The notes beneath the pieces were generated by a model. That model ran no database searches and had not been told where the DNA came from. It saw nothing but the letters and a program-made list of their open reading frames with translations. From a virus (lineage: Duplodnaviria; Caudoviricetes), in the IMG/VR virus record IMGVR_UViG_3300031951_000177, positions 1-57,940 of that record: 57,940 bases of DNA; one strand, written 5' to 3'. This document shows positions 24,465 to 57,511 of the stretch, piece after piece (the first letter of the stretch is position 1; the number at the start of each line of letters is the position of its first letter). Both the position numbers and the translations under genes were made by a program.

Positions 24465-27400
24465 TCACTTGCAGTTGATCTTCACCAGGCCGGCGTCGTC
24501 GAGCCGCTCCAGGATGTCCATGAACTCTTGGTCGATGCGGCGGATTGTCTCAGCCATCGGGTGCGCGTCAACCCGCTCGAGCGCACGCACGCGCCCCAGG
24601 CCTCGGGCGTCTTGCAGATCGCGGAACAGGCCGGCCACTTCCTTGTCCTCAGCACGGGCGCGCTGACTGAATGCGGGCGCATCCTGCCAGCCCTGCGGCG
24701 ACGAGGTCGGCTTGTAGTAGGTGCCGATCCAGCCCATCAGGTTGACGTCGGTCTTGACCGTGCGCGCAGAGATCATCTCCGCCAGCTTGGGCCACACCCC
24801 AGGCCAAGACACGAAGTTGCCATTGAGCTTGACGTCAGCCTTAGGATCTCCAGCCTTGCGACCAGTCAGCGCCTGCTTGGCCAGGCCGGGGTCCAGGTAC
24901 AGCAGGTTGCCGTCGTTGATGCGTTTCATCAGCACCTGCTCGTTCGGCTTGCCGCCGGAGATCGACACGCCCTTGGCGTAGATCGACATCACCGCGCCGG
25001 TCGGATCGGTGTTGTCCACCGACACCTTGATCGGGACGATCAGCGCGCCCTTGTCGCTGGTGATCGGCAGCACCAGCTCGAACTCGCGGGGGTTGCCGTC
25101 CTTCGACTTCAGCACCATGGCCGGGCGGTAGATGCCCTCGATGAGCTGCTTGGGCGTGATGTCGGGAAGCTCGTCCGCGTGTCCTTTTTCTGCCTTGGTC
25201 CTGATGAAGACCTTGTTCACGATGCTGGTGGCGATGTCGAAGTCCTGCGTGCGAGCGCCCAGCATGTTGAGCACATGGGGCAGCCGGCCGATGGTGAGCT
25301 TCGGCAACTGGCGTCCCTGCTGCGCCTCGCGGATGTAGCGCTGCAAGTTGATCGAGGCGCCCTCGATCTCTTTGTTCAGGGCGCTCTGCGGCGACACCTT
25401 CGGCAGTTGACGGTTGCTGAATGCTGGCGCTTCAGCTCGAAGCTCGCGAGCCAGCTCGCCGCGGTACATGACCTTGTCGGACTGCCACACCGGGTTGCCA
25501 GCCAGGCGCTCGTAGACGTCCGGCATGCCGCGAGAGATGAGCTCCGCCCAACGCTTGCCGGACACCTGCCCGGCCGGCAGCATCTTGTTGGCTGAGATCT
25601 TCTCAGCGTCGCTCAGCACTCGCTCACGGGCCGGTGCAACAGCCTCGCCTGCCATGCGGCTGCGAGCGCCGAGCTGCTCGACGGGCACCGCATGCCGACC
25701 CAGCAGCACTGCATTGCCTGACGGCCCGGCGTCGCGCACCATGTAGCCGTCGAAGCCTGCGTCGATGACGGCCGACTCGAAGTCGTTGAAGGACTCGTTG
25801 TCGCGGCGCAGACGCAGCGTGTCCTCGTCGACGTCGTACAGGTTCTGCAGATTGACGCGGTGAGCCTGGCCCCCCACGCCGGCCTCAGGATTGATGCCGG
25901 TGCCGCGATCGATGTAGAAGTTGATGCGCTGCTTCAGGCGCGGATCTGCGCCCTGCAAGCGCGTCATCTCGGCACCGCGCAGGCCGGTGCCATACATCAC
26001 GCTGTCGAGGGTCGTGCGGGGCTGGGTGCTGTAGTGATAGCCGACCGCGGAGGCGGCGCCCTCTCGAGGGGTGCCGTAGGAAGGGGTTACCGCTTGAACG
26101 TCTTGCGGCCCCACTCCTCGATCGCGTCCACCGCCGGCTGCATCGGATCCGCCTCGGTTGCTGAACTGGATTCGGCCGGGGTCTCCCCACTGGTACTTTT
26201 CGGCGAACTGCTCGAAGACTCGCTGGACCCGAGGCGCGAGAACACTTCTGGCCCAGTCGAGAACATCGGATCGTCCCGCGGCACTAATCCTTTGTATGTA
26301 GCCTTGCCCATTCGGGTTTACCTCCCAGTCATTGGTTGGCATGTCGCCGCTGGAGGCGAACACGCGATAGTCGAAGTCCGGCAGCACCCCCTCCGCGACC
26401 TTCACGATCTCTGATTGGAGTACGTCATTTGTGATGATACCGAAGTTCACGGCCCTAATACCAGTGGGAGAACTGATCAGCGCAAACTGGTTCTGCCAGT
26501 TGACCTTGCCGTTGTCGTCCATCCACTTGCCGATTGCCGCCTCGAGATCTCGCGTTTCTACCGGGTTCAGTGCCCGGCCGATGTCGATGTCCAGGCCGTT
26601 GGACTGGCGCTTCGTGCCGGCGTAGAAAGGACGGTGCCAGCCCACCCCCTCCTGCCTGGCCACCAGGCCGGCCACGGACGCATAGACGTTGAGCAGCTCG
26701 GCCTGTGCCGGGTCGACGTTGCTCTTGCCCGCATCGCCTCCGGCCGGCGCCATAGCCACGCGCTTCTGCGTGCTGGGTGACACCTCGCCCTGCCACACGC
26801 CCGGGCGCATCAGGTCGCTGGGCTCCGTCAGAAGGCCGAGCATTACGGCCAGCATGTCGCTGCCGTTCTCGTCGTAGAAGGCCCGCTGCACGGCCTGATG
26901 GAACTCCACCTGCTGGGCATACGGTGCGGTGTGGATCCCCTCTAGAACGCCCGTGCTGCGGCCTGGCCGAGCCTCGAACGAAAGCTGACCGACGTGACGT
27001 CCGACTCCATCAGCAAAGTCGAACTTGGCCTGCTCGGTATCCTCCTTGGTGGGCACATGCTCCGTCGCATGCTTGAGCCAGTTGTCGCGGTGCTTCTGCG
27101 CGTCGATGATGACGCGGACCTTCTTGCCCTTCGCGTCGCGCTCAAACCTGATCCAGCCATTCTTTTCGCTGCTGGCCTCAGTCCTCTCCTTGACGCCTTT
27201 GTTCTCCATGCGGGCCTTCATCGCGACCCAGATGGCGGCCTGCACTTGCTGCGGCTCCCATCCCATCTCCTGCGCAATGCGGTTGGTCTCGTTCTCCATG
27301 AAGGCGTACTGCGTCGGCGTGGGTGCGTCGTTGGCGTACTCGGCCGCACGCATCATCCACATGTCGATCGTCGCGCCCTGCTTGCCGGCAGTGCTGGTGT

Positions 27401-30400
27401 CGATCTCGCGCAGCAGGTTGAAGAAGAAGTTGCCCGTCTTCTCGCCAGACCAGAAGGCGTCAACGTCGGCCATTGCCTGAGTCGCCTTCTTGTCCTGCAC
27501 CCCGGTCTTGACGCTGATCGGCTGGCCAGCCTTGTACTGTGCCCAGGCTCGCAGCGCAAACGTCGAGTTACTGTCGACACGCGCCTGCGGGCTGTAGATG
27601 GCCAGCAGGGCAACGAACTTGCGCGCCTCCTGCACGTTGCCGCCAGTCATGCGCAAGATCGCCAGGCTGCTGTTCTCGTACCAGTAGCGACCGCGCTCGC
27701 CCTCTTTGGTCAACTTGAGAAGGATGGCGCGCAGCTCACCAATCTTTTCAGGGGTGTTGTACTTTTCGGGTGCGCCGACGTACTTTCCGTCCCGCATTGG
27801 CAGCTCGTCGAGCACAACGCCAGCCCGGCTGTATGCCGTCTTGCGGCCCTCAAGCGCAGCCCTCACACGCGGTGCGGCCGACGTGGTGAACACAATTCCG
27901 TCTTTGGTGTTGCGACCCTTCACGTCATCAGGGATGCTGGCGCGGATAGCCTCGTGGCTTCCATAGACCATGATCGTCCCGTCCCGCATAGTGCGGACAT
28001 CAAAGTCACCCACGCGCTCGGTGCCCTCGCGGGGCTTTAACTCTTGTGAAGTTTTTGATACACTTGACTCGTCAGGAGATCCTATGAAAGTCCCCTCTTC
28101 CTTCCCAGCCGGCTGCGAGTTCGTTGCCTCGTTCTCCGGCGACGAGTTCGTCAAGTTCCCCGACGGCAAGCTCTTCAAGCTCGCCGACTCCGGCGAAGAG
28201 CTCGTGCCAGCCAGCTCGCTGCCTGCACGCGGCGCGCCGATGTCGGAGGCTGCCTTCCTGTCCTGCGCCGAGGGCTGCCGCAAGTTCGCCGCCGAGAAAG
28301 CTGCGTCGTAAAGACCACGCATCGCGTCGTAGATCTCGCCGCGCAGCGGTGAACCCTCAGGCTGCTCACGGGCGGCCTCGTACAACTTGTGGCCCTGGCC
28401 ATCCTTGGCGGCCAGCATGGCGGGCGTATTGATCTGGATCTCACCCACCGTGCCGTTGGGCATTCTGATGTTGATCAGCACGTCGGCATAGCCGCCGAAC
28501 TTTTGGCGGTCTGACGACTCCACCCCCTCGCCAGTCACGCCAGCACCGGCGCGGTCCTTGATGCGGACCACGTCGAACTCCTTGCGGATCTCGTCGATGA
28601 TCGCGGGCGCGTCGGCGTAGCTGTCGACCACGATGGTCGAGCGCAGCAGGTCCTTGATGTTGTCGACCTGGTAGTTCTCCTCAAGCGCCAGCTTCTCGGC
28701 CGCACGCTTGATGCCCTTGATGGGCGCCAGCATCTGGCCGGTGGCGCCGGTGCGCGCTGCGATGTTCAGGATCTTCTGGTCGTACTCCGGCTTGACCTGC
28801 TCGGCCGCTTCCATCCTGGGCTTCAGCAAGATCTCTGCGCGCAGGCGATCCTGCGGCGAAACGGAGACTGGCTGCCGCTCCTTGAAGTACTTCTCGACGA
28901 ACCCGTCGGCCGCCGCCACTGTCTCTGCCGGCACCGACTCGGACAGCAGCGAAGCCATGTCGCGCTGATTGTTGAAGTTGTCGGCCTTCGGGTTGTAGTC
29001 GCTGACCTTCACAGGCTCGCGGGCCCGGCCGCTGAACATGAACTCGGACTTCTGTCCGTAGGTTGGGTTCTTGGCCAGCACCAGGGGGCCGATTTGGATG
29101 ACCTCCTGCGCAGCGACGACGGGCTCCATCGTGGAGCGGTCGTAGAAGTAGCTGTGCCGCTCGGGGTCCATGCCGACCTGGATCCAGGACTTGGAGTTGA
29201 GAGCAGCCTGCGCAAACGCGACCGCCTGCTTCTCGGTCATCTGTTTCCACTTGCCCTCGATGCGAGCGAACGGAGACTTAGCCGAGTCGCCCTTGGCGAT
29301 CTCAAGCGCCTTCTCCTGCTCGCGAGGGGTCATCGCAAACTCGGCATCGGTCACGGCCGACACGTTTCCGTACAAGGTCTTCTTGTCCTTGTTGGCCGGG
29401 TGGATCGAGTTGACCCACACGCCGTGGTCCTTGTACGCCGGAATATCCAGGCGCAGCCCCACGCGCTCGCCGTTGGTCAGCTCTTTGTCGGCGATGCCGT
29501 AGCGCGGCAGCTTGGCCGACGTCAGGGCGCGCTCGGCGTCAGCCTGAGTTGCAGGCTCAGGCACGAACGAATACGGCGCCACGGGCTTGTATTCGTCCAC
29601 CATGCGGGCGTAGTCCTCGCGAGTGATCGCGCCTTGGGACAGCTTGTTCGCCCCCTCGGTCAGCTCCGGCACCCGCTTGGTCACGTCCTTGAAGTCCATG
29701 CTCAGGCGGTTGACGGCAACGCGCTGAGACGCCATGGCCATGCCCTCGAGCTGCACGTCGGGCTGCAGGCCCTGCGCCTTCATCGCGTCGGCGTAGGCGG
29801 TCGTCAACAGGTCGCGAGCCTTCGCGACGTCGGAGATGTACTTGTTGACGAAGTCCTCGCCGTACTGCTTCTTCGCGCCGGTGATGATGTCGCCGAGCTT
29901 GGCGATGATGGTCTTGGCCACCTCGCCAAACTCCTTGTTGCCCATCTTCGTGCGCAGCTCTTGCCAGAAGTCCTCGCGCTTGCTGATGGCCTGCACCATC
30001 ATGGCCGGGGCCTCCTCCTCGAACTTGTCCGGCGTGTAGCTGAACTCGTCGAGGAACTTGTCCTTGCGGTCCTGGCGGAACAGATCCAGCAGCGCGGTGT
30101 TCAGGCTTTTGCGCTGAGCCTCCGGCAGGCCGTGATAGGCCTCGTGCACCGTGATGGCCAGGGGCGCATCGTCCGCATCGTCGGCGACGAACAGGTGCTT
30201 GCCGCCGACGCTGTTGATCATGCCGTTGGGCAGAGCGCCTGCACCGGTCTCCTGGTGGACTACCGTCAAGGTCTTGCCCATCAGGCGCGCCACCGCACTG
30301 GCCAGGCGCTGCGAGTCGTTCAGGTCGGTCGACTTGACCGGCGAGAACGTGACGCCGAGCTGCTGGTCGAGCTGCTTGTTGAGCGAGCTCAGCTCTCGCA

Positions 30401-32675
30401 GCGGCGCCGTGGGCGCGAGCTTCAGTCCGGCACGTTCAGTATCAGACAGTTCAACCGGGGCGCCGGTTGCGGCGGGGATGCCACCAGCGCCGCTTTGTGC
30501 GGCACCTGCCATTTGGCCTGCTGGTGTTGCTCCTTGCGTTTGGCCTTGCTGGGCTTGAGGGGTTTGCGTGCCAAGGTTGGTCTCCTTTTGGTATCCGACA
30601 ATCTGAAAGCGCCCGTTGCCCATGGGCTCGACACGCCAGTCGTGAGTCTGCCTGGTGTCGATGACCGTGCTGGCAGTGGCCATCGCCTGCTGAGCGTCCT
30701 GCTCGTTTGCATAGCCAGTCTTTGCGCGGCCAGTCCAAGTCAGCGGCTCACCGCCTACGGCTACGCCGGCAGGCTGTTGGCCGGCCGCACCTCCAGCAGG
30801 TACAGCCTGTCGATCATTGACTCCAGGGATCGCGAGAGCTCCGCCTCCGTACCCGGTGGCACCTGCAGCGCCAGGTCCTGCAGCTCCCATGCTTCCGTCA
30901 ATGAGACCGCCCCCTGCCTCACCCCCTGCTCCAGCCAATCCTCCAGGTAAGCCTGTTGTGCCGACATTCGCGCCTCCCATGCGCAGCTTGTCCAGACCGA
31001 ACTGCTCCTCGGTCGACGGGTTGATCTCGGGCAGGATAGGAGCCGCGTTCGGCAGCGGCACCTCGATGTCCACCAGGCCGGCCTGCTTGGTCGGCGCGTT
31101 GGGCGGGGTGAAGTTCTTGACGGTCGCGGCGGGTGAGATCAGGTTTGAGGTGCCGGCTTCCGTGCGCAGCATGTCAATGCTGATAGCTTGCGATGCCTCT
31201 GGCCCAAGGTTCTCAAACGCACGCCCAGCCGAGTCGATCTCCCGCGCAATCTGGCGCTCAGGTTCGTAGTAGCCGGTCGCTGCGGCGGCAACCTGAGGCG
31301 CGCTCATCAGCTTGCCCGTCACGCCGCCAACAACTCCGGCCTCGGCCAGGCCCTTGGTCAGCTCAATGTCCTTGCCCTGGAAGTACTTGTCGAGCACGTT
31401 GCCGCCGAACTGCGCAGCCACTTCTTCGATCGCGTTGGTCAGCCCGTTGGCAGTGATTGCACCGCCGGCCTGCAGAGCGCGCTGGCCAGCCACCGCCAGC
31501 ACCGTGTTGGCCTTGGCCGGAGACATCCCCTTGAGCACGTCGCCGACTTTGTCGAACACACCAAGCGGCAGCTTCTCGGATATGTACTCCACCCCGCCCT
31601 TGGCGAGAGCCACGCGGGAGTCGTCGCCTTGAGCGAAGCTCTGGCCAGCCGCCGTGCCTGCCATGCCAGGCAGCAAAGCTGCGCGCAGCGGCGGCACAAA
31701 CGCAGCCAGCAGAGACTGCGCGATCTGCGGCGAGTTGGCGGCGAGCTTCGACATCAACCACGGCGCAAACTCTTGGCGCGCAATGGCCTCGTCCATCTCT
31801 TGCTTGCCAACCTTTGGCATGAAGTCGCTGGCAGACTTGGCCAGGTACTCAGTGCCAAATGCGGTGGGAACAGGGGGGAGATCTTGCATTCCCAGTGCGC
31901 GCAGCACCGGGTTGATGGCAGTCTTGTTGAAGGCGTCTGCGGCGACCGAGGGGATGTTGATCACGCCGCTGATCAAGCCCGCGGAGCCGGCAGCAATGGA
32001 ACCCAGCAGCGGATTCTCTTCGGCAAACTTGCGGCGCCCTTCGGATTCCGCCATTTGGCTGGTAACGCCACTGATCTCGTCTACGCGCAGACCCTCATCG
32101 GCCACGCGCACGCCCTGCGCCAGCATGCGGCGGTCGGCGATCTGCTTAGCCGAGCGGCCATCCATGATGTCGCCAAAGCCAGGAGTGACATCAGGAATTG
32201 AGACGGGCGACGCTGCGCCGGCACCAAGCCTGGGCGGCGGGACATTGCCGGGTCCACGCGGAGCATCCAGCAATCTTTGAGCTCGCCCCTCCTGGTCCAA
32301 GCTGATGCGCTTGTTTTCTGCCTGCGCCTCAGACAGGATCTGACGCGCCGCCCGGCCCAGCACATCTGTGCGATTGTCGGCCAGGGTAGTCAACAGGCGC
32401 ATGCGATCTTCAGGCGCGGCCTTGCCGATGATGTCGCGCCGAACGCCGGCCACATAGTCCTGGTTCAGCATCGGATCGAACCCGGGCGTGCGAGGCACTT
32501 CGCCAGGCTGATCCATCACGCTGCGGATCAGCGGCCCGCCGGTAGGCGCGCCCTGCATGGCCGTGGCCATGTCGGAGTAGTCCGTCGCATCGGCGGACTC
32601 CACCTCCTCAATCGGGATGAAGCGGAAGGCTTTCTGCTCTTCCTTCTCGAACTCGGAGATGGGTACGAATCGCAT
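24465..32675 (-). CDS. Giant polyvalent ejection-type protein 1 (about 2736 aa): metallopeptidase, RelA/SpoT-like synthetase, HhH-glycosylase-like, ART-like and MuF-C/PBECR nuclease-like modules
   Basis: HEAYH (about 30140); IKGIKRAAEK...DLLRSTIVV...GYADV...EIQINT...HKLYE (about 28330-28830); YWYE...AIYSPQ...TIDMWMMR...QVQAAIW (about 27220-27700); YHYS...FYI...GFDGY (about 25700-26045); IGRLPHVL...H...IYRPAMVLKS...SIYAK (about 24870-25310). Confidence 0.9.
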   Translation of the reverse strand: MRFVPISEFEKEEQKAFRFIPIEEVESADATDYSDMATAMQGAPTGGPLIRSVMDQPGEVPRTPGFDPMLNQDYVAGVRRDIIGKAAPEDRMRLLTTLADNRTDVLGRAARQILSEAQAENKRISLDQEGRAQRLLDAPRGPGNVPPPRLGAGAASPVSIPDVTPGFGDIMDGRSAKQIADRRMLAQGVRVADEGLRVDEISGVTSQMAESEGRRKFAEENPLLGSIAAGSAGLISGVINIPSVAADAFNKTAINPVLRALGMQDLPPVPTAFGTEYLAKSASDFMPKVGKQEMDEAIARQEFAPWLMSKLAANSPQIAQSLLAAFVPPLRAALLPGMAGTAAGQSFAQGDDSRVALAKGGVEYISEKLPLGVFDKVGDVLKGMSPAKANTVLAVAGQRALQAGGAITANGLTNAIEEVAAQFGGNVLDKYFQGKDIELTKGLAEAGVVGGVTGKLMSAPQVAAAATGYYEPERQIAREIDSAGRAFENLGPEASQAISIDMLRTEAGTSNLISPAATVKNFTPPNAPTKQAGLVDIEVPLPNAAPILPEINPSTEEQFGLDKLRMGGANVGTTGLPGGLAGAGGEAGGGLIDGSMGAAGPGAAGATGYGGGALAIPGVNDRQAVPAGGAAGQQPAGVAVGGEPLTWTGRAKTGYANEQDAQQAMATASTVIDTRQTHDWRVEPMGNGRFQIVGYQKETNLGTQTPQAQQGQTQGATPAGQMAGAAQSGAGGIPAATGAPVELSDTERAGLKLAPTAPLRELSSLNKQLDQQLGVTFSPVKSTDLNDSQRLASAVARLMGKTLTVVHQETGAGALPNGMINSVGGKHLFVADDADDAPLAITVHEAYHGLPEAQRKSLNTALLDLFRQDRKDKFLDEFSYTPDKFEEEAPAMMVQAISKREDFWQELRTKMGNKEFGEVAKTIIAKLGDIITGAKKQYGEDFVNKYISDVAKARDLLTTAYADAMKAQGLQPDVQLEGMAMASQRVAVNRLSMDFKDVTKRVPELTEGANKLSQGAITREDYARMVDEYKPVAPYSFVPEPATQADAERALTSAKLPRYGIADKELTNGERVGLRLDIPAYKDHGVWVNSIHPANKDKKTLYGNVSAVTDAEFAMTPREQEKALEIAKGDSAKSPFARIEGKWKQMTEKQAVAFAQAALNSKSWIQVGMDPERHSYFYDRSTMEPVVAAQEVIQIGPLVLAKNPTYGQKSEFMFSGRAREPVKVSDYNPKADNFNNQRDMASLLSESVPAETVAAADGFVEKYFKERQPVSVSPQDRLRAEILLKPRMEAAEQVKPEYDQKILNIAARTGATGQMLAPIKGIKRAAEKLALEENYQVDNIKDLLRSTIVVDSYADAPAIIDEIRKEFDVVRIKDRAGAGVTGEGVESSDRQKFGGYADVLINIRMPNGTVGEIQINTPAMLAAKDGQGHKLYEAAREQPEGSPLRGEIYDAMRGLYDAAFSAANLRQPSAQDRKAASDIGAPRAGSELAGTSSSPESASLKSLPSGNLTNSSPENEATNSQPAGKEEGTFIGSPDESSVSKTSQELKPREGTERVGDFDVRTMRDGTIMVYGSHEAIRASIPDDVKGRNTKDGIVFTTSAAPRVRAALEGRKTAYSRAGVVLDELPMRDGKYVGAPEKYNTPEKIGELRAILLKLTKEGERGRYWYENSSLAILRMTGGNVQEARKFVALLAIYSPQARVDSNSTFALRAWAQYKAGQPISVKTGVQDKKATQAMADVDAFWSGEKTGNFFFNLLREIDTSTAGKQGATIDMWMMRAAEYANDAPTPTQYAFMENETNRIAQEMGWEPQQVQAAIWVAMKARMENKGVKERTEASSEKNGWIRFERDAKGKKVRVIIDAQKHRDNWLKHATEHVPTKEDTEQAKFDFADGVGRHVGQLSFEARPGRSTGVLEGIHTAPYAQQVEFHQAVQRAFYDENGSDMLAVMLGLLTEPSDLMRPGVWQGEVSPSTQKRVAMAPAGGDAGKSNVDPAQAELLNVYASVAGLVARQEGVGWHRPFYAGTKRQSNGLDIDIGRALNPVETRDLEAAIGKWMDDNGKVNWQNQFALISSPTGIRAVNFGIITNDVLQSEIVKVAEGVLPDFDYRVFASSGDMPTNDWEVNPNGQGYIQRISAAGRSDVLDWARSVLAPRVQRVFEQFAEKYQWGDPGRIQFSNRGGSDAAGGGRDRGVGPQDVQAVTPSYGTPREGAASAVGYHYSTQPRTTLDSVMYGTGLRGAEMTRLQGADPRLKQRINFYIDRGTGINPEAGVGGQAHRVNLQNLYDVDEDTLRLRRDNESFNDFESAVIDAGFDGYMVRDAGPSGNAVLLGRHAVPVEQLGARSRMAGEAVAPARERVLSDAEKISANKMLPAGQVSGKRWAELISRGMPDVYERLAGNPVWQSDKVMYRGELARELRAEAPAFSNRQLPKVSPQSALNKEIEGASINLQRYIREAQQGRQLPKLTIGRLPHVLNMLGARTQDFDIATSIVNKVFIRTKAEKGHADELPDITPKQLIEGIYRPAMVLKSKDGNPREFELVLPITSDKGALIVPIKVSVDNTDPTGAVMSIYAKGVSISGGKPNEQVLMKRINDGNLLYLDPGLAKQALTGRKAGDPKADVKLNGNFVSWPGVWPKLAEMISARTVKTDVNLMGWIGTYYKPTSSPQGWQDAPAFSQRARAEDKEVAGLFRDLQDARGLGRVRALERVDAHPMAETIRRIDQEFMDILERLDDAGLVKINCK
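26087..26311 (-). CDS. Candidate nested gene (+1 frame) inside giant protein 1
   Basis: GGAGGT-7 nt-ATG; 74 aa MGKATYKGLVPRDDPMFSTGPEVF...AVDAIEEWGRKTFKR; host-frame codon usage is locally atypical. Confidence 0.5.
   Translation of the reverse strand: MGKATYKGLVPRDDPMFSTGPEVFSRLGSSESSSSSPKSTSGETPAESSSATEADPMQPAVDAIEEWGRKTFKR
28036..28078 (+). promoter_or_regulatory. Internal antisense promoter and RBS
   Basis: TTTAAC(28036)-17 nt-TACACT(28059), AGGAG(28074), in an AT-rich patch inside a GC-rich gene. Confidence 0.65.
28084..28311 (+). CDS. Candidate nested antisense gene (75 aa) next to the RelA/SpoT module; putative immunity protein
   Basis: Promoter + AGGAG + ATG; MKVPSSFPAGCEFVASFSGDEFVKFPDGKLFKLADSGEELVP...; the host frame here is a Ser-rich low-complexity linker. 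Confidence 0.65.
   Translation: MKVPSSFPAGCEFVASFSGDEFVKFPDGKLFKLADSGEELVPASSLPARGAPMSEAAFLSCAEGCRKFAAEKAAS
30422..30574 (-). CDS. Weak candidate nested gene (+1 frame, basic, 50 aa)
   Basis: AAGGAG-7 nt-TTG; MARKPLKPSKAKRKEQHQQAKWQVPHK. Confidence 0.3.
   Translation of the reverse strand: MARKPLKPSKAKRKEQHQQAKWQVPHKAALVASPPQPAPRLNCLILNVPD
30761..30967 (-). CDS. Candidate nested gene (+1 frame, acidic helical, 68 aa)
   Basis: GGAGG-5 nt-ATG; MSAQQAYLEDWLEQGVRQGAVSLTEAWELQDL...; GC3 bias shifts to this frame while the host frame uses TTA/GGA/GCA codons. Confidence 0.62.
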   Translation of the reverse strand: MSAQQAYLEDWLEQGVRQGAVSLTEAWELQDLALQVPPGTEAELSRSLESMIDRLYLLEVRPANSLPA

Positions 32676-32677
32676 GC

Positions 32678-33862
32678 TTACTTCCCGACGTAGCCGATGA
32701 CCTTGCCGCTCTTGTCCTTCACTTCCCAACCCCGACCAGACACAAGCGCGCCGATCGAGGAGCCGGCCGGGGCGCCCTGCACTTGGGCGATTTGCGGCGG
32801 ACTCTTGGCGTCAGAGGGGGCCGGGGCCGCTGGAGCCGCCGCGGGAGCGCCGCTGGATTCTCCACTACCAGGCCGCTTGAACTGCTTCATCGCCGCATTC
32901 AATTCCGTCAGCTCGTTCAGGAACGGCTGAATCTCTTCAAGCCTTGTCTTGGCCTTTGCGTCACCGGCTTCAGCACGCTTGCGCAGGGATGCGAGCGAGG
33001 CGTTGACCTCGTTCTTGGTGACCCCAAGGGTCAGCGCAATGTCGTCCTTGCTGGCGTTGATCTGACGTTGAATGTCCGCGGTGGTCGCTGGCTTCTTGTT
33101 CGGGTCAGAAGGGTTCGCCGAGCGCTCAGCGCGTCTTTCACGGGTGCGCGCATCTGCCTCCATGATGCCCAGGCGGCGATCGGTCTGATCGCCTCGACGG
33201 CGGCCCTCATCTGCGCGCTGCCTGTTCCCTTCTTCGATCAGGTCCAGCCGGCGATTTGTCGCGGCCTGCTCAGCGGCGCGCTGCTTCTCTCTGTTCTCCT
33301 CGGCCACCTCGCGCAGCGTGTCCGCCTTGGCCTTCGTGTAGGCATCGAGCACAGACGAGTGCGCACCCATTCCCATGGCCGCGGTCACGCGGTCCTCGGC
33401 AGCGATCATCCGCGGGTCGCGGGTCGACTCTGCTGCACCCTCGATCAGGCCTGACTTGCGGTAGCTCTCGCGCAGCGCCGGATCCTTGCGGATCAGGTCG
33501 AGCATCTGCTCCTTGCTGAGCGCGATGTCACCCTCCTCGCCGGCCTTGGCAGACATCTCACCCAGCTTGGTGGCGTCAGAGTCCATGCGCGCAGTGCGGC
33601 GCTCGGTCCCCATCTGCGTGGCGCGCTGCTCGACCTGCGCGGTTTCAGCAGTCACGCGCTGCTTCAGCGTCTCGGCCTTCTTCTCCTCGCGCTCGGCGCG
33701 GATCCTGTCAGCCTCCTCGGCCCGCTTGATGGCGTTGGCCTCGCGCCGCTCCTCGTCCTCGCGCCTGCGCTGGTCCTCGATGTCCTTCAGCATGTAGCTG
33801 CCAAAGGTGGTCCCGGCATCTGCGATGCCTTTGCCGATCCCGGCCCAGATCAGTCCGCTCAT
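32678..33862 (-). CDS. Putative ejection/internal virion protein (charged coiled coil)
   Basis: 394 aa; position between the pilot-like genes and the giant protein. Confidence 0.8.
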   Translation of the reverse strand: MSGLIWAGIGKGIADAGTTFGSYMLKDIEDQRRREDEERREANAIKRAEEADRIRAEREEKKAETLKQRVTAETAQVEQRATQMGTERRTARMDSDATKLGEMSAKAGEEGDIALSKEQMLDLIRKDPALRESYRKSGLIEGAAESTRDPRMIAAEDRVTAAMGMGAHSSVLDAYTKAKADTLREVAEENREKQRAAEQAATNRRLDLIEEGNRQRADEGRRRGDQTDRRLGIMEADARTRERRAERSANPSDPNKKPATTADIQRQINASKDDIALTLGVTKNEVNASLASLRKRAEAGDAKAKTRLEEIQPFLNELTELNAAMKQFKRPGSGESSGAPAAAPAAPAPSDAKSPPQIAQVQGAPAGSSIGALVSGRGWEVKDKSGKVIGYVGK

Positions 33863-41297: not shown

Positions 41298-44114
41298 TTA
41301 GGCTTCAAGCGCCGCGACACGGGCGCGGAGGGATTGGAGTTCAGCGACGATGTTGGCAATGAACTCGGCAGAGCCGTACTCCATCGCTTGCATCACGGGC
41401 TTACCGTCTGCGTCTACCGCGTCTTTTTCACCAACCACGGTGCTGGGACTGACTTTTTGAACCTCATGCGCGATGAAGCCAACACCCTTGCTGCCATCAG
41501 TCTTCCAATTCCATGTCTTGGGCTGGAGCGCGTCAATGAACGCGCCGGAGTTCGCCAGAGGTTGTTGGTTGTCTTTGAGTCGGTAGTCGGAGGAAGTGCT
41601 AAACGTTGTCGTGGTCCCGGTTGTAGAAACACTACCTACGTTGCCATTTCCGTTGCGAAAAACAATGTGGTTTGTAGCGGTTGTGACATTTGTTTCTGTG
41701 TTCAGAATTGTTGCGCCACCGGCTTTATAAAAATTGCTGCCGCCGTTTGGTGTGGTCTGCGTCCCCACCAGCAAATCACCCCCGCTCGTGATGCGGGCGC
41801 GTTCGGTGTTGTTGGTGCCAAAAGACAAGAACCCGTTACCGATATTCCACAAATACGAGTTTTCTGATATCTGTCCAAGATTCAGGTAGTAGCTCGCATC
41901 TGACGTATCCCAAATGCCCAGAATCGGTGCAGCAGACGCCTGAATAGTCATGCCAGTGCCGCTGCCACTCAGCCCCGTAACTTTGTTCGTCGTGCCGCCA
42001 AGGGCAAGGTTCCCACTCGCATCCAGCGTCATTGCCTGCGTGAAGCTGATCGCGTTGCCTGCGGTGCCGCCTGCTGACACATACCAAGCGTGAGCGCTAC
42101 CGGCATTTGCGCCGGTCATTTCGTATCTAGCAGCGCCGACGGAGCTTGCTGCGTAAATCCAGTTGGTGCCGTTGTCGTAAGCACCATGAACAAGCGCCGA
42201 GCTAGTGCTCCCAGTAGCGTTGGTAAACAGCGCACCGCCCCCGAGGTAGCCTATTTGAATTGCTCTGCGCGATGCCGCAGTGCTCCACGCACTCGGCGTC
42301 ACCCCCAGGCCGAGGTTGCCGGAGGAGTCGAGACGCATGCGTTCGGTGCTGTTTGTCCAAAACAGCATTGGGTAAGCGCCACCAGAAAATAAATTTGCTG
42401 AATAGGCTGGCGCTGAAAAATACGTACCCGCTGAATTTTCACGACCTATATAAAGATCGCCTCCAGTGTTTTGCAAGAACAACACTACTTCATTTGTGCC
42501 TGTGCTTGAAGTGATGTTTTGTTTTGCATTGGCTGCGACTACCGACAATCTGTTGGTTGGCGAACTCGTCCCAATCCCCAGACCTGTGGAGGTCAGGCGC
42601 ATTTGTTCGGAGCCGCCAGCAAACCACCTTTGAAAAGTCGTAGCAGAAGAACCAAAAAAAATAGGAATTGCTGGAAGGCCACCAGCGCCGTTTCCAATAT
42701 ATAAGCCGGAACCATCTTCGCCAATCAGCATCTCGCCAGTTGGCCCAATAAGGTAACTTGCGCTTCCACCATCAAAAGTTAAGGTGTTGCTGCCGTTAAA
42801 CGTCAGCGCACTCCCGCTCGTCAGCACCTTGCTGCCGTTGAGATAGGTCACGCCGTTGGCGGTGAGGCTCGCAGCCGTCGTCGAAATGCCCAAGCCAGGC
42901 AGGCGCAGTGACGTGTTGGAGCTGTTGCCGATCGTGATCTCGTTGCTCACGCCGGCCGCAGACGCTGCAGCGTTGTAGCCGATGATGATGTTGTTCGACC
43001 CGGTCGTCAGGTCGTTGGTGCCGCTGTACCCGGCCTGGTAGCCGAGGGCAGTGTTGTTGGCTCCCGAGGTCACCGCCGCCAGTGCGTAGTAGCCCACCGC
43101 AGCGTTGTTGCTGCTGCCGGTGGTGGTCAGCAGGGCAGACGTGCCAATGGCCACGTTGTTCGCACCGCTGGCGTTGTCCGTGCCGGCGGTCACGCCGATG
43201 TAGACGTTGCTCCCGCCCGTAGTGACGTTGTCGCCGGCCTGGACGCCCACGGCGACGTTGCTGCTGCTTGTGGCGCTGTCCAGTGCCCTGTAGCCCACCG
43301 CAGTGTTGTTGGCGCCGGTGGTGTTGGCCCTCAGGGCCTCGAAGCCGAAAGCGGTGTTGCGGATGCCCGTGGTGGTGGTAGCTGCGCTGCCGCCAACCGC
43401 CGTCAGCCACGGCGTGGCCGTCTGCACAATGATCGGACCCCAGGAGCTGCTGGTGCCGTTGGTCGTCAGGAACTTGCCAGCGTTGCCGGTCTGTGACGGC
43501 AGAACCTTGGTCTCTGCCAAGGACGTGATCCACGCCGGGTTCGCGTAACTGCCAATCGTGTAGACGCCATTGGTGACGGTGTCGGCGTTGCCCGTCAGGG
43601 CGCCGACGAACGACGTCGACGTCACCGAGGTCAGGCCGGCCAGCGTCGTGGCCGTGGCACCCAGGCTGATGCTGGTAGAGCCCACCGTCAGCGAGCTGTT
43701 GGTTAGGCTGGCGTTGCCGATGTTGCTCAGCGTGTTCGACGATCCGCTGATGGTCTTGTTGGTCAGCGTCTGCGCAACATCAAGACCCGCAATGGTCATG
43801 TTCGCATCGGGCACCGTCAGCACGCGGGTCGCGCCGGCAGTGATGCCGCTGGCCTCAAATCGGAACTTGCGTGTGCTGTCGGCGTTGTCTTCCACCACCA
43901 GGTTCGTGTCGGTGATGGTCAGCGGTGGCAGCACGCTGACGGCCTCCAGCGCCGTGCCAGAGGAGTTGACCGTGACGAGCTTGGTCGCATTGCCCGACAG
44001 AGTCGGCAGCTTGTCGAAACCAGTCGAGATCGAAGCAAGCTCGGCCCGCATGGAGGCCGAAGTTGCCGGCGCGCCGGTCGCGGGGAATGCTCCGCCGTTG
44101 TAGTACGGGTTCAT
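41298..44114 (-). CDS. Tail fibre with C-terminal S74 intramolecular chaperone
   Basis: NTAxGxxAL repeats, ERMRLDSSGNLGLG-type repeats, TSSDYRLKDN...GFIAHEVQ...ELQSLRARVAALE. Confidence 0.92.
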   Translation of the reverse strand: MNPYYNGGAFPATGAPATSASMRAELASISTGFDKLPTLSGNATKLVTVNSSGTALEAVSVLPPLTITDTNLVVEDNADSTRKFRFEASGITAGATRVLTVPDANMTIAGLDVAQTLTNKTISGSSNTLSNIGNASLTNSSLTVGSTSISLGATATTLAGLTSVTSTSFVGALTGNADTVTNGVYTIGSYANPAWITSLAETKVLPSQTGNAGKFLTTNGTSSSWGPIIVQTATPWLTAVGGSAATTTTGIRNTAFGFEALRANTTGANNTAVGYRALDSATSSSNVAVGVQAGDNVTTGGSNVYIGVTAGTDNASGANNVAIGTSALLTTTGSSNNAAVGYYALAAVTSGANNTALGYQAGYSGTNDLTTGSNNIIIGYNAAASAAGVSNEITIGNSSNTSLRLPGLGISTTAASLTANGVTYLNGSKVLTSGSALTFNGSNTLTFDGGSASYLIGPTGEMLIGEDGSGLYIGNGAGGLPAIPIFFGSSATTFQRWFAGGSEQMRLTSTGLGIGTSSPTNRLSVVAANAKQNITSSTGTNEVVLFLQNTGGDLYIGRENSAGTYFSAPAYSANLFSGGAYPMLFWTNSTERMRLDSSGNLGLGVTPSAWSTAASRRAIQIGYLGGGALFTNATGSTSSALVHGAYDNGTNWIYAASSVGAARYEMTGANAGSAHAWYVSAGGTAGNAISFTQAMTLDASGNLALGGTTNKVTGLSGSGTGMTIQASAAPILGIWDTSDASYYLNLGQISENSYLWNIGNGFLSFGTNNTERARITSGGDLLVGTQTTPNGGSNFYKAGGATILNTETNVTTATNHIVFRNGNGNVGSVSTTGTTTTFSTSSDYRLKDNQQPLANSGAFIDALQPKTWNWKTDGSKGVGFIAHEVQKVSPSTVVGEKDAVDADGKPVMQAMEYGSAEFIANIVAELQSLRARVAALEA

Positions 44115-48711: not shown

Positions 48712-49743
48712 TCACAGAGCCGAGCAGGCGGACTCGATCCGCACCATCCAGTTCTCGTTCAGTCGCACCGCGTTCTTGTAGAAGTTGGCGCCGACATAAC
48801 CGAACTGGCCCATAGGATTGGCGTGCGTGATCTGCTTTGCAGGCAAGTAGATCGGCTGGATCGCGCCCATGCCCTTCAGAGCGACCTGACCCCAGGCTTC
48901 CTGAGCAACCACCATGATGGGGTAGACGTCAGCCGTGGTGCCGGAGGTGCCACCGTTGGACAGGAAGGTGCCCGCAGTGATCGAACCGCCGGCCGACAGG
49001 AACGGCTTGAAGTACGGCGAGGTGATGATGCGGAAACGCTCCACCGTGCCGACCTCACGCTCGTGCGTGGGCTTCTGCTGACCGTAGCGAGCCACGGGCA
49101 CGAAGTTGGCCAGGTTACGGAAGTCGGCTTCCATGTCGGTGTGGATGAACACCAGGTAGCCAGGCTCGACGGCGGTCGTGCCGAAGTTGACCGAAGAGGC
49201 CAGCTTCTCGGTCACGAGCTGAGCGTGCGCAGCCTCGAGCTGACGGGCAGCCTGACGCAGCTTGTTCAGCGTGATGCCGGTGTTCACCGAGGCGCGGGCA
49301 GAGCCGTTGGCGTACACGACGTTCGTGCCACCGCGGACCACACCGTAGGAGATCAGCTCCTCGATGCTGGCCATGTGCTCGCCCACCAGCTTGACCATGT
49401 CGCCGGGGATGTCGTCCTCGTACATGGCTTCAGCCTTGGAGCTGAGCTTCATCAGCACGCCGTACTGCTGCACGGTCACCTGCACGTCCTGGTAGGCGAT
49501 GGTGCGAGCACCAGGGGTCACGCCTTCTTGCAGCAGGTAGTTGCTGGCGGTGATGCTCGGGGCACCGTTGGAGCCGGCGTCGATCGGCAGAGCGCGACGG
49601 AACACGACCGTGTCGGTCTTGTTCTGGGGGATCTGCTTCTGCGAGCCGAAGGTGCTCAGCACCTTGATGGGCATGGCGTGCTTGAGCATCTCGCGCTCCG
49701 CCATGATGAGGTTCCGGGAAGGAACAAGGGAATAGGTCTGCAT
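48712..49743 (-). CDS. Major capsid protein (N4-gp56-like family)
   Basis: IPQNKTDTVVFRR, LQEGVTP, QQYG, FVPVARYG, EVGTVERFR, NPMGQFGYVG. Confidence 0.9.
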   Translation of the reverse strand: MQTYSLVPSRNLIMAEREMLKHAMPIKVLSTFGSQKQIPQNKTDTVVFRRALPIDAGSNGAPSITASNYLLQEGVTPGARTIAYQDVQVTVQQYGVLMKLSSKAEAMYEDDIPGDMVKLVGEHMASIEELISYGVVRGGTNVVYANGSARASVNTGITLNKLRQAARQLEAAHAQLVTEKLASSVNFGTTAVEPGYLVFIHTDMEADFRNLANFVPVARYGQQKPTHEREVGTVERFRIITSPYFKPFLSAGGSITAGTFLSNGGTSGTTADVYPIMVVAQEAWGQVALKGMGAIQPIYLPAKQITHANPMGQFGYVGANFYKNAVRLNENWMVRIESACSAL

Positions 49744-55312: not shown

Positions 55313-57511
55313 TCAGATGCCGGCGCCCGTGTTGACACGCAGCGCAGCCTCCGCGTTGAAGATCTGACGCTGGTTGTCGATCTTCAGTGCCTCGAGGCGC
55401 TCCTTCGCGGCGATCTGCTCGCGAGTGAGCTGAGCGTCCTGGCCGAGCTTGGTCAGCGCCAGGTCGCGCTCGATGCCGGCCTCGGTCATCGCGATCTCGT
55501 ACTCGGCCTGCTCGCGCTGGCGGTTGTACTCGGTCTGCTGGGCCTGCTGAGCGCGGACCTCCTTGTTGTCCGCGATCTTGGCCATGTCGACCTCGGCCTT
55601 GATCTGAGCGGCCGCGATGCGAGGATCTTGCGGCGCGCCCATCTGGGCCTGAGCCTCGGCCTCTTGCTTGACCTGGTCCTCGGGCTTGAGCAGCTCCTCG
55701 GGGTTGACCTTGAACGCCTTAAGGATGGCCTTGAGCTCCTCGCGCTCCTTGAGGTGCGGGATGTAGCGCGGGTTGTTCGTGATGTTGGCCAGGTTCAACA
55801 GCGCCTGATTCTGGATGTCGCGCTCGATCAGCGCGGTGGATCCGCGGGCGTCGATCTCGTAGTCGCCCTTGATGGCCGGGTCTGGATCGTTGGCCATCTT
55901 CCAGTCGTAGTACCGACCGATGTGCGGCCTGGTGATCGTGTCGTCGTACAGCTTCACGCGCTGGCGCAGCACGGCGTTGGCGTTGTTGTACAGCATGACC
56001 ATGCCGCCGACGGTCTCGGGCGCACTGCCCTGCTCTCCGCCCATGATCTGGGGCATGCTGGACTCGGTGTCGGCGAACTGCATGGCAGCCTGCGCGATGG
56101 CCAGCAACTCCTCGAGGTGCGAATTGAACTCGAACACCGTCATGGCCGCACGCACGTCGTCGAGCTCGTCCTTGGCCAGCCAGACCTTGTTGGGCGTGAT
56201 CTCGTAGCTGCCGTTCTGCGGAATCACCATGCCCTTCTTGATGACGATCTGGCCGCCCAGCGAGGTGCGTCCGTTGTCCATCACTTGGCGCCAGGCGCTG
56301 TTGACCACGCGCTGCTGGTGCTCGAGCTCGTCGGGCAGGCCGTAGCCGAACGGGCTGTCGTCGGATTTGCGCCAGCAGTAGACGTCCACCGGCAGCGTGC
56401 GGTCCACAACCCACGACTCCATCGCACCCACGACCTTGTCGTTGACGATCACGAGCACGCCGAAGTCCACGTCGGTCAGCGGATCCTGCGTGCGGCTCGA
56501 GAGCATCTCCATCTCTTCGGGCTCGATCTCACCGTGGTACGTCCACATCTCGTAGGCGTCCTCGTTGATCATGTCGCGGATGATCCGTCCCTCGGCCACG
56601 CGCAGCTTCTGCGGCGGCGAGCGCAGCACCTCGCGGATGGCCTCCTCGTCGTAGCCTGGCAGGCCCACGAGCTGGCGCAGTTGCTTGCGGGTGACCATGC
56701 GACGCATGAAGAACCCGCGGCCGGCCTGGTGGTCGTTGCCGCAGCTCGGATCGAAGAAGCAGTCCCACGGGTCCATGCGCATGCTGGCCGGGACGATCGA
56801 CTCGTTGATCTGCAGCACCTGCGTGCCGCCAGCCTGCGGCAGCCAGACCTTGCTGGTCTGCCGGGCCGGGAACGGGCCGTACATGACCATCGTGCCCAGG
56901 CGCACGGCATCCTCGATGCCCTTGCGGCTCTCGCCGTTGTACTTGCACTCGGTCAGGCTGTCGTCGATCGAGCGCTCCATGGCCTCGGCCGCCTGCTTGG
57001 CGGCCTCCATGATGGCGTTGGCTTCCTCGTTGGCCGTGAAGCCGGTGGGCTGGCCAGTGGCCGGGTCGACGGTCTGGGCGTTGTTGCCCATCATGTCGGC
57101 CAGCTCAGGCAATGGCGTGGGACGGATGCCCCAGTTGCGGTCGTCCACGGGGAACAGGATCTCGCACATGCGCGCCACGGCCTGGTCGACCTTCGGGCGC
57201 ACGATGTTGATCACCACGCGAGAGCGCGTACCGTCCACCGCCTTGCGCGCCGGCGGGCCGTTGCGCAGGGTGTTCTCGAACTCGCCGGTGCTGTTGGTGT
57301 GCTCACCGAAGTAGAGCTGCGCGTTCCTGCGCCAGCGGCGCTCGACGTCGGTGTTGGTGGCGCGTGACTGCACCCACTGGTCGCGCATCTTGGCGAAGAC
57401 GGCGTACAGGCGCTCGATCTCGCCCTTCTGGCGGCCTTCAAACTCTTCCTGGGTCAGCACCTCGTCGCCGACCATGTAGGCGACTTCGGGCGGTAGATCT
57501 TTGGGGTCCAT
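55313..57511 (-). CDS. Portal protein
   Basis: 732 aa directly after terL; INIVRPKV, DPWDCFFDP, FGYGLP, ETVGGM, coiled-coil barrel tail. Confidence 0.9.
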   Translation of the reverse strand: MDPKDLPPEVAYMVGDEVLTQEEFEGRQKGEIERLYAVFAKMRDQWVQSRATNTDVERRWRRNAQLYFGEHTNSTGEFENTLRNGPPARKAVDGTRSRVVINIVRPKVDQAVARMCEILFPVDDRNWGIRPTPLPELADMMGNNAQTVDPATGQPTGFTANEEANAIMEAAKQAAEAMERSIDDSLTECKYNGESRKGIEDAVRLGTMVMYGPFPARQTSKVWLPQAGGTQVLQINESIVPASMRMDPWDCFFDPSCGNDHQAGRGFFMRRMVTRKQLRQLVGLPGYDEEAIREVLRSPPQKLRVAEGRIIRDMINEDAYEMWTYHGEIEPEEMEMLSSRTQDPLTDVDFGVLVIVNDKVVGAMESWVVDRTLPVDVYCWRKSDDSPFGYGLPDELEHQQRVVNSAWRQVMDNGRTSLGGQIVIKKGMVIPQNGSYEITPNKVWLAKDELDDVRAAMTVFEFNSHLEELLAIAQAAMQFADTESSMPQIMGGEQGSAPETVGGMVMLYNNANAVLRQRVKLYDDTITRPHIGRYYDWKMANDPDPAIKGDYEIDARGSTALIERDIQNQALLNLANITNNPRYIPHLKEREELKAILKAFKVNPEELLKPEDQVKQEAEAQAQMGAPQDPRIAAAQIKAEVDMAKIADNKEVRAQQAQQTEYNRQREQAEYEIAMTEAGIERDLALTKLGQDAQLTREQIAAKERLEALKIDNQRQIFNAEAALRVNTGAGI

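Follow-up and report, generated by a model that had tools for sequence, protein, structure and literature searches.

A small acidic three-helix protein probably encoded within the linker of a giant virion-protein gene of a tailed phage

Small genes lying inside a larger one, on the same strand but in another frame, and provided with a ribosome-binding site and a start of their own, are exemplified in phages by the embedded spanin genes Rz/Rz1 of lambda and by genes B within A and E within D of phiX174. The window analysed here (the whole stretch of 57,940 nucleotides, from an uncultured tailed dsDNA phage) displayed a candidate of the same type. Like Rz1-in-Rz and B-in-A, it lies entirely inside its host gene, on the same strand but in another frame, and has a Shine-Dalgarno sequence and a start of its own. 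Unlike Rz1, its product would not be a lipoprotein, and the host is a protein of 2736 residues from the structural module rather than a lysis gene. A spanin role, as an embedded Rz1-like o-spanin, was considered and rejected: the peptide has no lipobox cysteine and a net charge of -7, and the host gene belongs to a structural module and not to a lysis cassette. The locus further differs from both Rz/Rz1 and phiX174 in that the two genes overlap within a disordered linker between domains and in that the family of the small product is without match in Pfam, PHROGs or NCBIfam.

Other parallels were found in plant and animal viruses. In Apple stem grooving virus, the movement-protein gene lies over a variable polyprotein linker, and diversity amounts to 39 % in the linker vs 4 % in the movement protein (PMC8227390). 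The present locus likewise appears to place a folded protein over a variable linker joining two domains, with a similar asymmetry of evolution (19 host vs 5 nested amino-acid changes, 16 vs 2 and 26 vs 4 in three of the pairs compared below); Apple stem grooving virus is, however, an RNA plant virus and the overlapping gene has a movement function, whereas the present case concerns a tailed dsDNA phage, in which internal initiation would be of the bacterial type. In hepatitis B virus, the polymerase spacer shares its DNA with the preS/S gene, and the modular-origin hypothesis of Pavesi supposes a short gene that once stood between two genes later merged into one protein (both PMC8227390). Here too, the spacer of a multidomain protein overlaps a conserved smaller gene, and the modular-origin scenario may apply; in contrast to the phage, hepatitis B virus infects animals and its overlaps are much longer, and no free-standing or unfused copy of the small gene was seen here.

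Among phages, embedded out-of-frame ORFs of mycobacteriophage Patience were detected by mass spectrometry (PMC4324244). Those ORFs are known from peptides and the present gene from sequence, which is conserved over phages of 41-70 % G+C and under purifying selection. The polyvalent proteins described from phages and from conjugative elements include, in phages, RelA/SpoT domains fused to MuF (PMC5512222). The host protein resembles them in being a very large multidomain phage protein with RelA/SpoT-like and MuF-related segments, both below the Pfam cut-offs here. A nested gene is apparently not described for polyvalent proteins, at least in the main text of that paper, where the word 'overlapping' occurs 0 times.

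The host gene (24465..32675, minus strand; stop codon at 24465-24467) encodes a multidomain protein and adjoins portal, major-head and tail-fibre genes. A match to DUF7178 (Pfam) reached 52.5-55.9 bits against a cut-off of 27, while RelA_SpoT (18-22 bits, cut-off 27) and MuF_C (20-23 bits, cut-off 27.6) stayed below theirs. The product is probably a virion-packaged 'polyvalent' protein. Relatives of the giant gene were mosaic, and no cultured phage showed more than 42 % identity to the major head protein of the window. A Gly/Ala-rich linker (30750..30980, minus strand; host residues 566-642) shares its DNA with the nested gene. Directly downstream of it lies a domain of 55 residues (30585..30749, minus strand; host residues 643-697), an HMM of which matched 16 of 21 giant ORFs with a nested gene and none of five relatives without one. 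Between the window and L026/L039 this domain is 93 % identical, the nested peptide there being only about 44 % identical.

A further downstream host domain carries a HEAYH (HExxH) motif (30132..30146, minus strand), whose H, E and H were invariant among 11 aligned relatives; it also occurs in relatives devoid of the nested gene. The preliminary description had spoken of a metallopeptidase module at this place. What that label covers is only this conserved HExxH motif, in a domain that displayed no sequence match in Pfam or PDB. A complex prediction combining the nested protein with host residues 640-1000, which include the 55-residue and HExxH domains, returned a score of 0.00; this gives no verdict and bears neither way.

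The nested ORF occupies positions 30761..30967 on the minus strand and consists of an ATG (30967-30965), 68 codons in all and a TAG (30763-30761). Its offset from the host ATG (32675) is 1708, and 1708 mod 3 = 1, i.e. the +1 frame of the giant gene. A Shine-Dalgarno-like GGAGG (30973..30977, minus strand) is separated from the ATG by the five-nucleotide spacer CGCGA. The predicted peptide of 68 residues has a pI of 4.13 and, in the sequence of the window, no cysteine, lipobox, signal peptide or hydrophobic N-terminus. Its length alone was unremarkable: the giant gene holds 14 same-strand ORFs of at least 68 residues in alternative frames, the nested one included, and it is the comparison with relatives that decides. 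GGAGG-N4-8-ATG arrangements were not above chance either (eight in the window vs 10.2 +/- 3.2 expected). RNA structure around the start was no weaker than in the surroundings (59th percentile in the window), and the start region ranked within the weakest-structured 15 % in only eight of 15 lineages.

The preliminary description had reported a GGAGG-5-ATG opening an acidic, helical ORF of 68 residues, a host frame reduced to Gly/Ala filler with atypical codons, and a codon bias moved to the nested frame, for which it proposed a frame-specific GC3 plot over the giant gene. The start, the acidity and the helices (the latter by AlphaFold prediction, see below) were found as described, and so was the shift in bias. 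Host GC3 in 69-codon windows had a median of 0.83 and a first percentile of 0.48, and its gene-wide minimum of 0.42 coincided with the nested ORF. The linker contained 28 Gly and 17 Ala among 77 host residues, and GGA made up 10 of 24 host-frame Gly codons in the overlap vs 8 % in 18 further genes of this phage. All windows of the giant gene were compared by a score of synonymous-codon choice, conditioned on the amino acid. The nested frame scored 0.26, close to true host windows (mean 0.30, sd 0.16), while all other +1 windows remained at or below 0.218; the host frame in the overlap scored -0.35, every other host window being at -0.185 or above. That GC3 is high in the nested frame is partly automatic, since nested GC3 equals host GC1 and Gly/Ala codons start with G. 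Openness and high GC3 alone prove nothing, because any Gly/Ala-rich stretch will, almost of necessity, have a stop-free, G-ending +1 frame.

All 42 contigs carried a homologue of the nested peptide, each time inside a large ORF and in its +1 frame; this count covers those 42 contigs only, most of the 101 family clusters described below lying outside it. L032, whose 30-residue match, at chance level, lies within a same-frame ORF of 726 residues in a Nonomuraea genome, was left out of all counts. In every context retrieved, the family member lay inside a large ORF of the same type. The nested peptide was 90-93 % identical in L018, L022 and L023, while their upstream 400 host codons were 29 % identical. 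In low-GC relatives, the host linker was rich in Glu, Pro and Thr and not in Gly. No match was obtained against 50,697 GenBank phage records, be it by blastn of the region or by tblastn, for which the queries were the nested peptide, the N-terminal host module and a member of the family found in a Roseateles assembly; a related-locus search with the single proteins P0004 and P0028 was likewise without match.

The two frames displayed opposite signs of selection. For the window compared with L022, L024, L013 and L020, dN/dS of the nested frame was 0.10, 0.15, 0.17 and 0.23, respectively, and that of the host frame in the overlap 4.9, 1.9, 1.6 and 2.2; flanking host sequence in its own frame ranged from 0.08 to 0.9. 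Nested values of 0.5-0.9 at the deepest divergences were put down to saturation. In nine pairs, differences fell on nested codon positions 1, 2 and 3 in the numbers 71, 46 and 136 (chi-square p = 8e-12), and host amino-acid changes outnumbered nested ones in all nine. Among 82 sliding windows over host codons 1-1640, fewer than 34 % of differences lay at host position 3 in only four, which overlapped the nested ORF (minimum 15 %), vs 36-81 % in the remaining windows. By the same sliding-window test of codon positions, a second candidate nested gene at 30422-30712 was without selection signature and was rejected. T at nested third positions was never found where it would create a host stop (0 of 235), vs 29 of 898 elsewhere; as the sequences are related, this is modest evidence that the host frame is kept open. 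On the sequences compared, the nested frame bears the selective constraint, and the host linker drifts freely yet stays open.

These results bear on whether the giant ORF is one gene at all. If the overlap were untranslated in the host frame, the small ORF would be an ordinary gene between two others; the low complexity, poor codons and dN/dS above 1 of the host frame would be expected, and in L064, L065, L067 and L068 the large ORF indeed stops 130-505 residues past the nested gene. A host-frame stop within the overlap was nevertheless encountered in none of the 42 contigs, T was avoided at all 235 positions where such a stop would arise, and no conserved start of a downstream gene was noticed. 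A division of the giant ORF was considered very unlikely.

The small protein itself belongs to a diverse, unnamed family of acidic three-helix proteins of about 67 residues. A profile search gathered 101 clusters at E <= 1e-3, of which 26 at E <= 1e-10, and the cluster proteins, nearly all of 59-72 residues, were matched end to end. Net charge was negative in 93 % of 109 members (median -6), and L8, A26, P45 and L57 were nearly invariant. AlphaFold predicted a three-helix bundle with a pLDDT of 86.4 from 13 sequences and 89.6 from 109, all five models reaching at least 86.3. No Pfam family matched, apart from isolated marginal matches in two of 109 members; PHROGs matched none of the 109 and NCBIfam one (E = 0.009). 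Structure-directed searches were equally negative, with 0 matches in a PDB profile search, 0 at E <= 0.001 by Foldseek against PDB (two models) and BFVD, and no usable match in an Atlas structure search. The absence of the family from curated libraries is explained by gene callers, which forbid fully nested genes.

The existence of such a family has to be set against the possibility that no second protein is made, the ORF being a by-product of the Gly-rich linker, an RNA or DNA element, or a shadow ORF of a GC-rich gene. The 14 alternative-frame ORFs, the chance frequency of Shine-Dalgarno and ATG pairs in the window and the automatically open, G-ending +1 frame of GGN/GCN runs would all be accommodated. 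Constraint on the host frame alone, however, predicts that host position 3 is the most variable, and it was the least variable. Moreover, a helical hydrophobic pattern of amino acids was held across 23-93 % identity, the predicted fold is a confident one, and the family is still found at 41 % G+C, with a host linker that is not rich in Gly. We regard this possibility as even more improbable than the previous one.

Least probable of all is a programmed ribosomal frameshift, i.e. a +1 slip in the giant gene giving a short isoform made of the N-terminal module and a 68-residue tail ending at the TAG: the ORF shares its strand with the giant gene and lies in the +1 frame, which in the window and several relatives runs on without a stop for 11-93 codons before the ATG, but in L015, L018, L022 and L023 a stop codon immediately precedes the ATG in the nested frame, the start is at the identical position in 25 of 25 distinct sequences, conservation of the nested frame starts at the Met with no conserved sequence upstream, and 13 of 15 lineages have a Shine-Dalgarno-like purine run at a distance suited to initiation. 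A full GGAGG was found 5-6 nucleotides before the ATG in nine of the 15, and the run was kept although the local host peptide differs among lineages. L062 and L063 displayed no obvious Shine-Dalgarno sequence, and some divergent members apparently start at GTG. With lengths of 58-68 residues in the 25 sequences, the same start throughout and nesting in all 42 contigs, the homologues hold the +1 frame open, in agreement with the preliminary description.

Very probably, then, the nested ORF is a real gene that codes for a protein and lies entirely, in the +1 frame of the same strand, within an interdomain linker of the giant virion-protein gene. The shift in codon bias, the nesting conserved in every contig counted and the selection on the nested frame support the gene within a gene proposed at the outset. 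As judged from sequence, it shows what is expected of an embedded gene, namely location inside another CDS, a start and Shine-Dalgarno sequence of its own, and purifying selection. Ribosomes would start independently at the internal Shine-Dalgarno sequence and ATG on the late structural mRNA, and the small protein would be co-produced with the giant one. Tentatively, their linkage suggests that the nested product might act in trans on the giant protein, either as a chaperone of its assembly or packaging or by inhibiting it, so that it does no harm to the cell in which it is made. Owing to the nesting, the two could then not be separated by the shuffling of giant-gene modules.

The preliminary description called the small gene overprinted, a word that would make it the younger of the two frames, but codon usage gave no age for either. 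In relatives of 41-42 % G+C, the host-frame GC3 of 0.28 was genome-like and the nested-frame GC3 of 0.78 was not; because these relatives reverse which frame looks genome-like, dating by codon bias was rejected as confounded. The small gene is possibly the older one and the linker the overprint, although we would not put this at even odds: two neighbouring genes, one for the N-terminal module and one for effector modules, may have fused by reading across the small gene, the family having since then been nested only, which would lock a trans-acting partner to a giant injected protein despite module shuffling. Such a fusion would be tolerated, since an acidic gene with G/C-ending codons, read in the alternative frame, gives a flexible linker free of stops.

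Embedded same-strand overlapping genes are already known as a type, and the nested gene itself was previously unnamed. Its family comprises at least 101 clusters of sequences, and the phages that carry it range from 41 to 70 % in G+C. The locus presents a clean case of asymmetric dual coding in a tailed dsDNA phage, in which the DNA for the disordered linker of the giant multidomain host protein also encodes a protein predicted to fold; until now, documented examples of this pattern have come mainly from small eukaryotic viruses. Where a low-complexity linker shows odd codon usage, this may serve to flag hidden genes. The nested gene can be abolished by changes that are silent for the host protein, and its function is therefore testable in a cultured relative. 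The locus offers a testable model of how linkers may host new or captured genes, and of how a mosaic virion or effector protein may keep a small factor linked to it.

The nested ORF occupied positions 30967-30761 of the minus strand, in the +1 frame relative to the giant gene. As stated in the preliminary description, it opened with GGAGG, five bases and an ATG (30977-30965, minus strand), from which 68 codons led to a TAG at 30763-30761. Comparison with related sequences showed that this coding frame is conserved and under purifying selection, whereas the linker frame in which it is embedded is tolerant of change. The second base of the nested ATG is at once the third base of host codon Asn570, and nested Trp11 is overlaid by a host Leu codon; synonymous host changes at these two places would abolish the nested start and create a nested stop, respectively. 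The predicted free product has a mass of 7.6 kDa. Its carrier belonged to the structural module of a complete virus record (57,940 bp, 62.9 % G+C), where a portal or adaptor (55313-57511), the major head protein (48712-49743), a tail-fibre-like protein (41298-44114) and the giant ORF (24465-32729) were all encoded on the minus strand. The giant ORF probably starts at the ATG at 32675, giving 2736 aa; in Pfam, DUF7178 was over its cut-off and RelA_SpoT and MuF_C were under theirs. The major head protein displayed at most 42 % identity to any of 50,697 GenBank phage records. A 618-aa antisense ORF opposite the giant gene (29094-30950, plus strand) resembled the shadow ORFs typical of GC-rich genes.

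Selection differed markedly between the two frames. Compared with four related contigs (L022, L024, L013 and L020), the window gave Nei-Gojobori dN/dS values of 0.10, 0.15, 0.17 and 0.23 for the nested frame; the corresponding host-frame values were 4.9, 1.9, 1.6 and 2.2. Both frames neared saturation at the deepest divergences. Over nine pairs, only roughly independent of each other, differences at nested positions 1, 2 and 3 numbered 71, 46 and 136 (p = 8e-12), and amino-acid changes were more numerous in the host frame than in the nested frame in all nine. Flanking host sequence displayed ordinary coding behaviour in its own frame. When codon positions were scanned along host codons 1-1640 in 40-codon windows against eight relatives, the share of differences falling at host position 3 dropped below 34 % (to 15 % at the lowest) only in the four windows overlapping the nested ORF and was 36-81 % in the remaining 78. 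The host frame itself appears to be kept open across the overlap: none of the 235 nested third positions at which a T would create a host stop carried T, versus 29 of 898 other nested third positions, a modest indication as the sequences are related.

Just downstream of the nested gene, two further alternative-frame ORFs (30422-30712, 96 aa, and 30451-30738, 95 aa, both minus strand) overlay the Gln-rich second linker of the host, where host GC3 dipped to ~0.54. A second hidden gene at this place was considered and rejected, 36-51 % of differences falling at host position 3 with no clear nested-frame signature; no other hidden frame, including the +1 ORF 30422-30712, was apparent along host codons 1-1640.

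Composition also changed at the nested ORF. GC1/2/3 was 0.65/0.46/0.81 for the whole host gene and 0.71/0.42/0.83, a genome-typical profile, for the nested frame. The frame-specific GC3 plot proposed in the preliminary description placed the minimum of the host gene (0.42 in 69-codon windows, median 0.83) exactly at the nested ORF. A synonymous-codon score, conditioned on the amino acid and trained on 18 other genes of the phage, reached 0.26 in the nested frame (at most 0.218 in the remaining +1 windows of the gene; mean 0.30 in true host windows) and fell to -0.35 in the host frame of the overlap, where the lowest other host window scored -0.185. The proposed displacement of codon bias to the nested frame was thus borne out, as was the view of the host frame as Gly/Ala filler written in rare codons: its 77-residue stretch across the nested ORF included 28 Gly and 17 Ala, and GGA made up 10 of 24 Gly codons in the overlap versus 8 % genome-wide. 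Three features taken alone did not exceed chance, namely the giant gene's 14 ORFs of 68 aa or more in alternative frames of its own strand, the number of SD-ATG patterns in the window (8 observed versus 10.2 expected), and the openness of the +1 frame, since GGN and GCN codons read in this frame are automatically stop-free and G-ending.

Another 41 contigs, 30 of viral and 11 of metagenomic origin, were recovered by scanning with the host N-terminus, the nested peptide, family alignments and one degenerate pattern. In each of them, as in the window, a large ORF (at least 451 aa) had the small ORF's homologue in its +1 frame, which supports a gene within a gene; carriers ranged from 451 aa (a 1.3-kb contig, open end to end) to 2769 aa. 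The counts exclude a 30-residue match in a Nonomuraea genome (L032), which belonged to an unrelated ORF read in the same frame. Nested ORFs were 58-68 aa long and started at the same aligned position in all 25 distinct sequences. Of 15 lineages, 9 had GGAGG 5-6 nt upstream of the nested ATG and 13 had an SD-like run, despite variation of the host peptide at this position between lineages. Expression as a frameshift product was rejected, because the start was fixed, a nested-frame stop immediately preceded the ATG in four contigs (L015, L018, L022 and L023), and the nested frame 5' of the Met was not conserved across relatives, all of which argues for independent initiation. Ribosomes would initiate internally at the SD on late mRNA and so produce the small protein.

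When 1.84 billion representative proteins were searched with a profile built from 13 nested peptides, 101 clusters matched at E <= 1e-3, 26 of them at E <= 1e-10; nearly all were 59-72 aa long and aligned end to end. Nine of the ten family sequences looked up were found in the collection, mostly from short metagenome contigs and named only 'hypothetical protein', one originating from a Roseateles sp. assembly (WP_327571484.1); among the database proteins, P0006 was identical to the nested ORF of contig L056. Conserved positions followed a helical pattern (L8, L12, A15, V16, E/Q25, A26, W27, D31, L34, P45, L48, R54, L55 and L57), and net charge was negative in 93 % of 109 members (median charge -6, median pI 4.4). 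AlphaFold2 predicted a three-helix bundle with pLDDT 86.4 (13 sequences) or 89.6 (109 sequences). Pfam, PHROGs, NCBIfam, PDB sequences and the Atlas yielded no match to the family, and the predicted fold had no Foldseek match against PDB and BFVD. In the family alignment (A6), 35 of the 109 members had L-P-[LAVI] as their last three residues, in most cases directly after N-x, and most others ended in Q or H; this C-terminus may be a docking motif.

The giant genes were strongly mosaic. Contigs L018, L022 and L023 shared 90-93 % identity with the window in the nested peptide and only 29 % over the 400 host codons upstream. The 55-residue domain directly downstream of the linker (30585-30749, minus strand) was 93 % identical between the window and contigs L026 and L039, while the nested peptide (~44 %) and the HExxH domain (42 %) had diverged much further, which suggests recent exchange of one small module. 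An HMM of the 55-residue domain matched 16 out of 21 giant ORFs with the nested gene and none of five relatives without it (L008-L012). In these five, the N-terminal module retained its 'FGLDKLR' end and was followed by other linkers (for example tandem PALDVTA repeats in L008), so that relatives of the giant protein exist without both linker and nested gene.

The HExxH motif occurred in 20 of the 21 and in all five, and by this distribution the nested gene is not specifically tied to the HExxH domain. The 'metallopeptidase module' named in the preliminary description comes down to a conserved motif in a domain that matched neither Pfam families nor PDB sequences. This domain spans ~250 residues (29676-30400, HEAYH at 30132-30146, minus strand), with H, E and H invariant in 11 relatives, and may represent an undescribed zincin-like domain of giant phage proteins. 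In four divergent relatives (L064, L065, L067 and L068) the large carrier ORF stopped 130-505 residues past the nested gene, which suggests a division of the giant gene in these phages.

In the window phage (63 % G+C) the nested frame looked native and the linker foreign, and the codon-usage criterion for frame age, as set out in PMC8227390, would make the small gene ancestral. The situation was reversed in two contigs of 41-42 % G+C (L070 and L071), where host GC3 was 0.28 (genome-like) and nested GC3 0.78; their linker was rich in Glu, Pro and Thr, not Gly, and the nested family thus persists in low-GC phages. Constant across the G+C range were a G/C-rich host position 1 and a host position 3 set by nested position 2. 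What stays constant is thus the pattern of dual coding as such, and given the reversal, codon usage cannot date either frame. The overlap could have originated either by de novo birth in the linker or by fusion of two genes through reading across a pre-existing small gene.

Same-strand embedded genes are known in phages, such as Rz1 in Rz and those of phiX174. Embedded ORFs of mycobacteriophage Patience were generally not conserved according to their authors (PMC4324244), and examples in PMC8227390 include genes of ASGV and HBV written over polyprotein linkers or spacers. A full-text literature search found no description of a giant phage virion protein whose linker has another gene nested in it; 'overlapping' occurred 0 times in the main text of a polyvalent-protein survey (PMC5512222), whose supplements could list the giant-protein family. 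The nested small protein is well supported as a new gene family. Its obligate linkage to the giant gene tentatively suggests, as one possible and rather doubtful role, action in trans on the giant protein, either as a chaperone or as an inhibitor; nesting would then guarantee that the two are inherited together.
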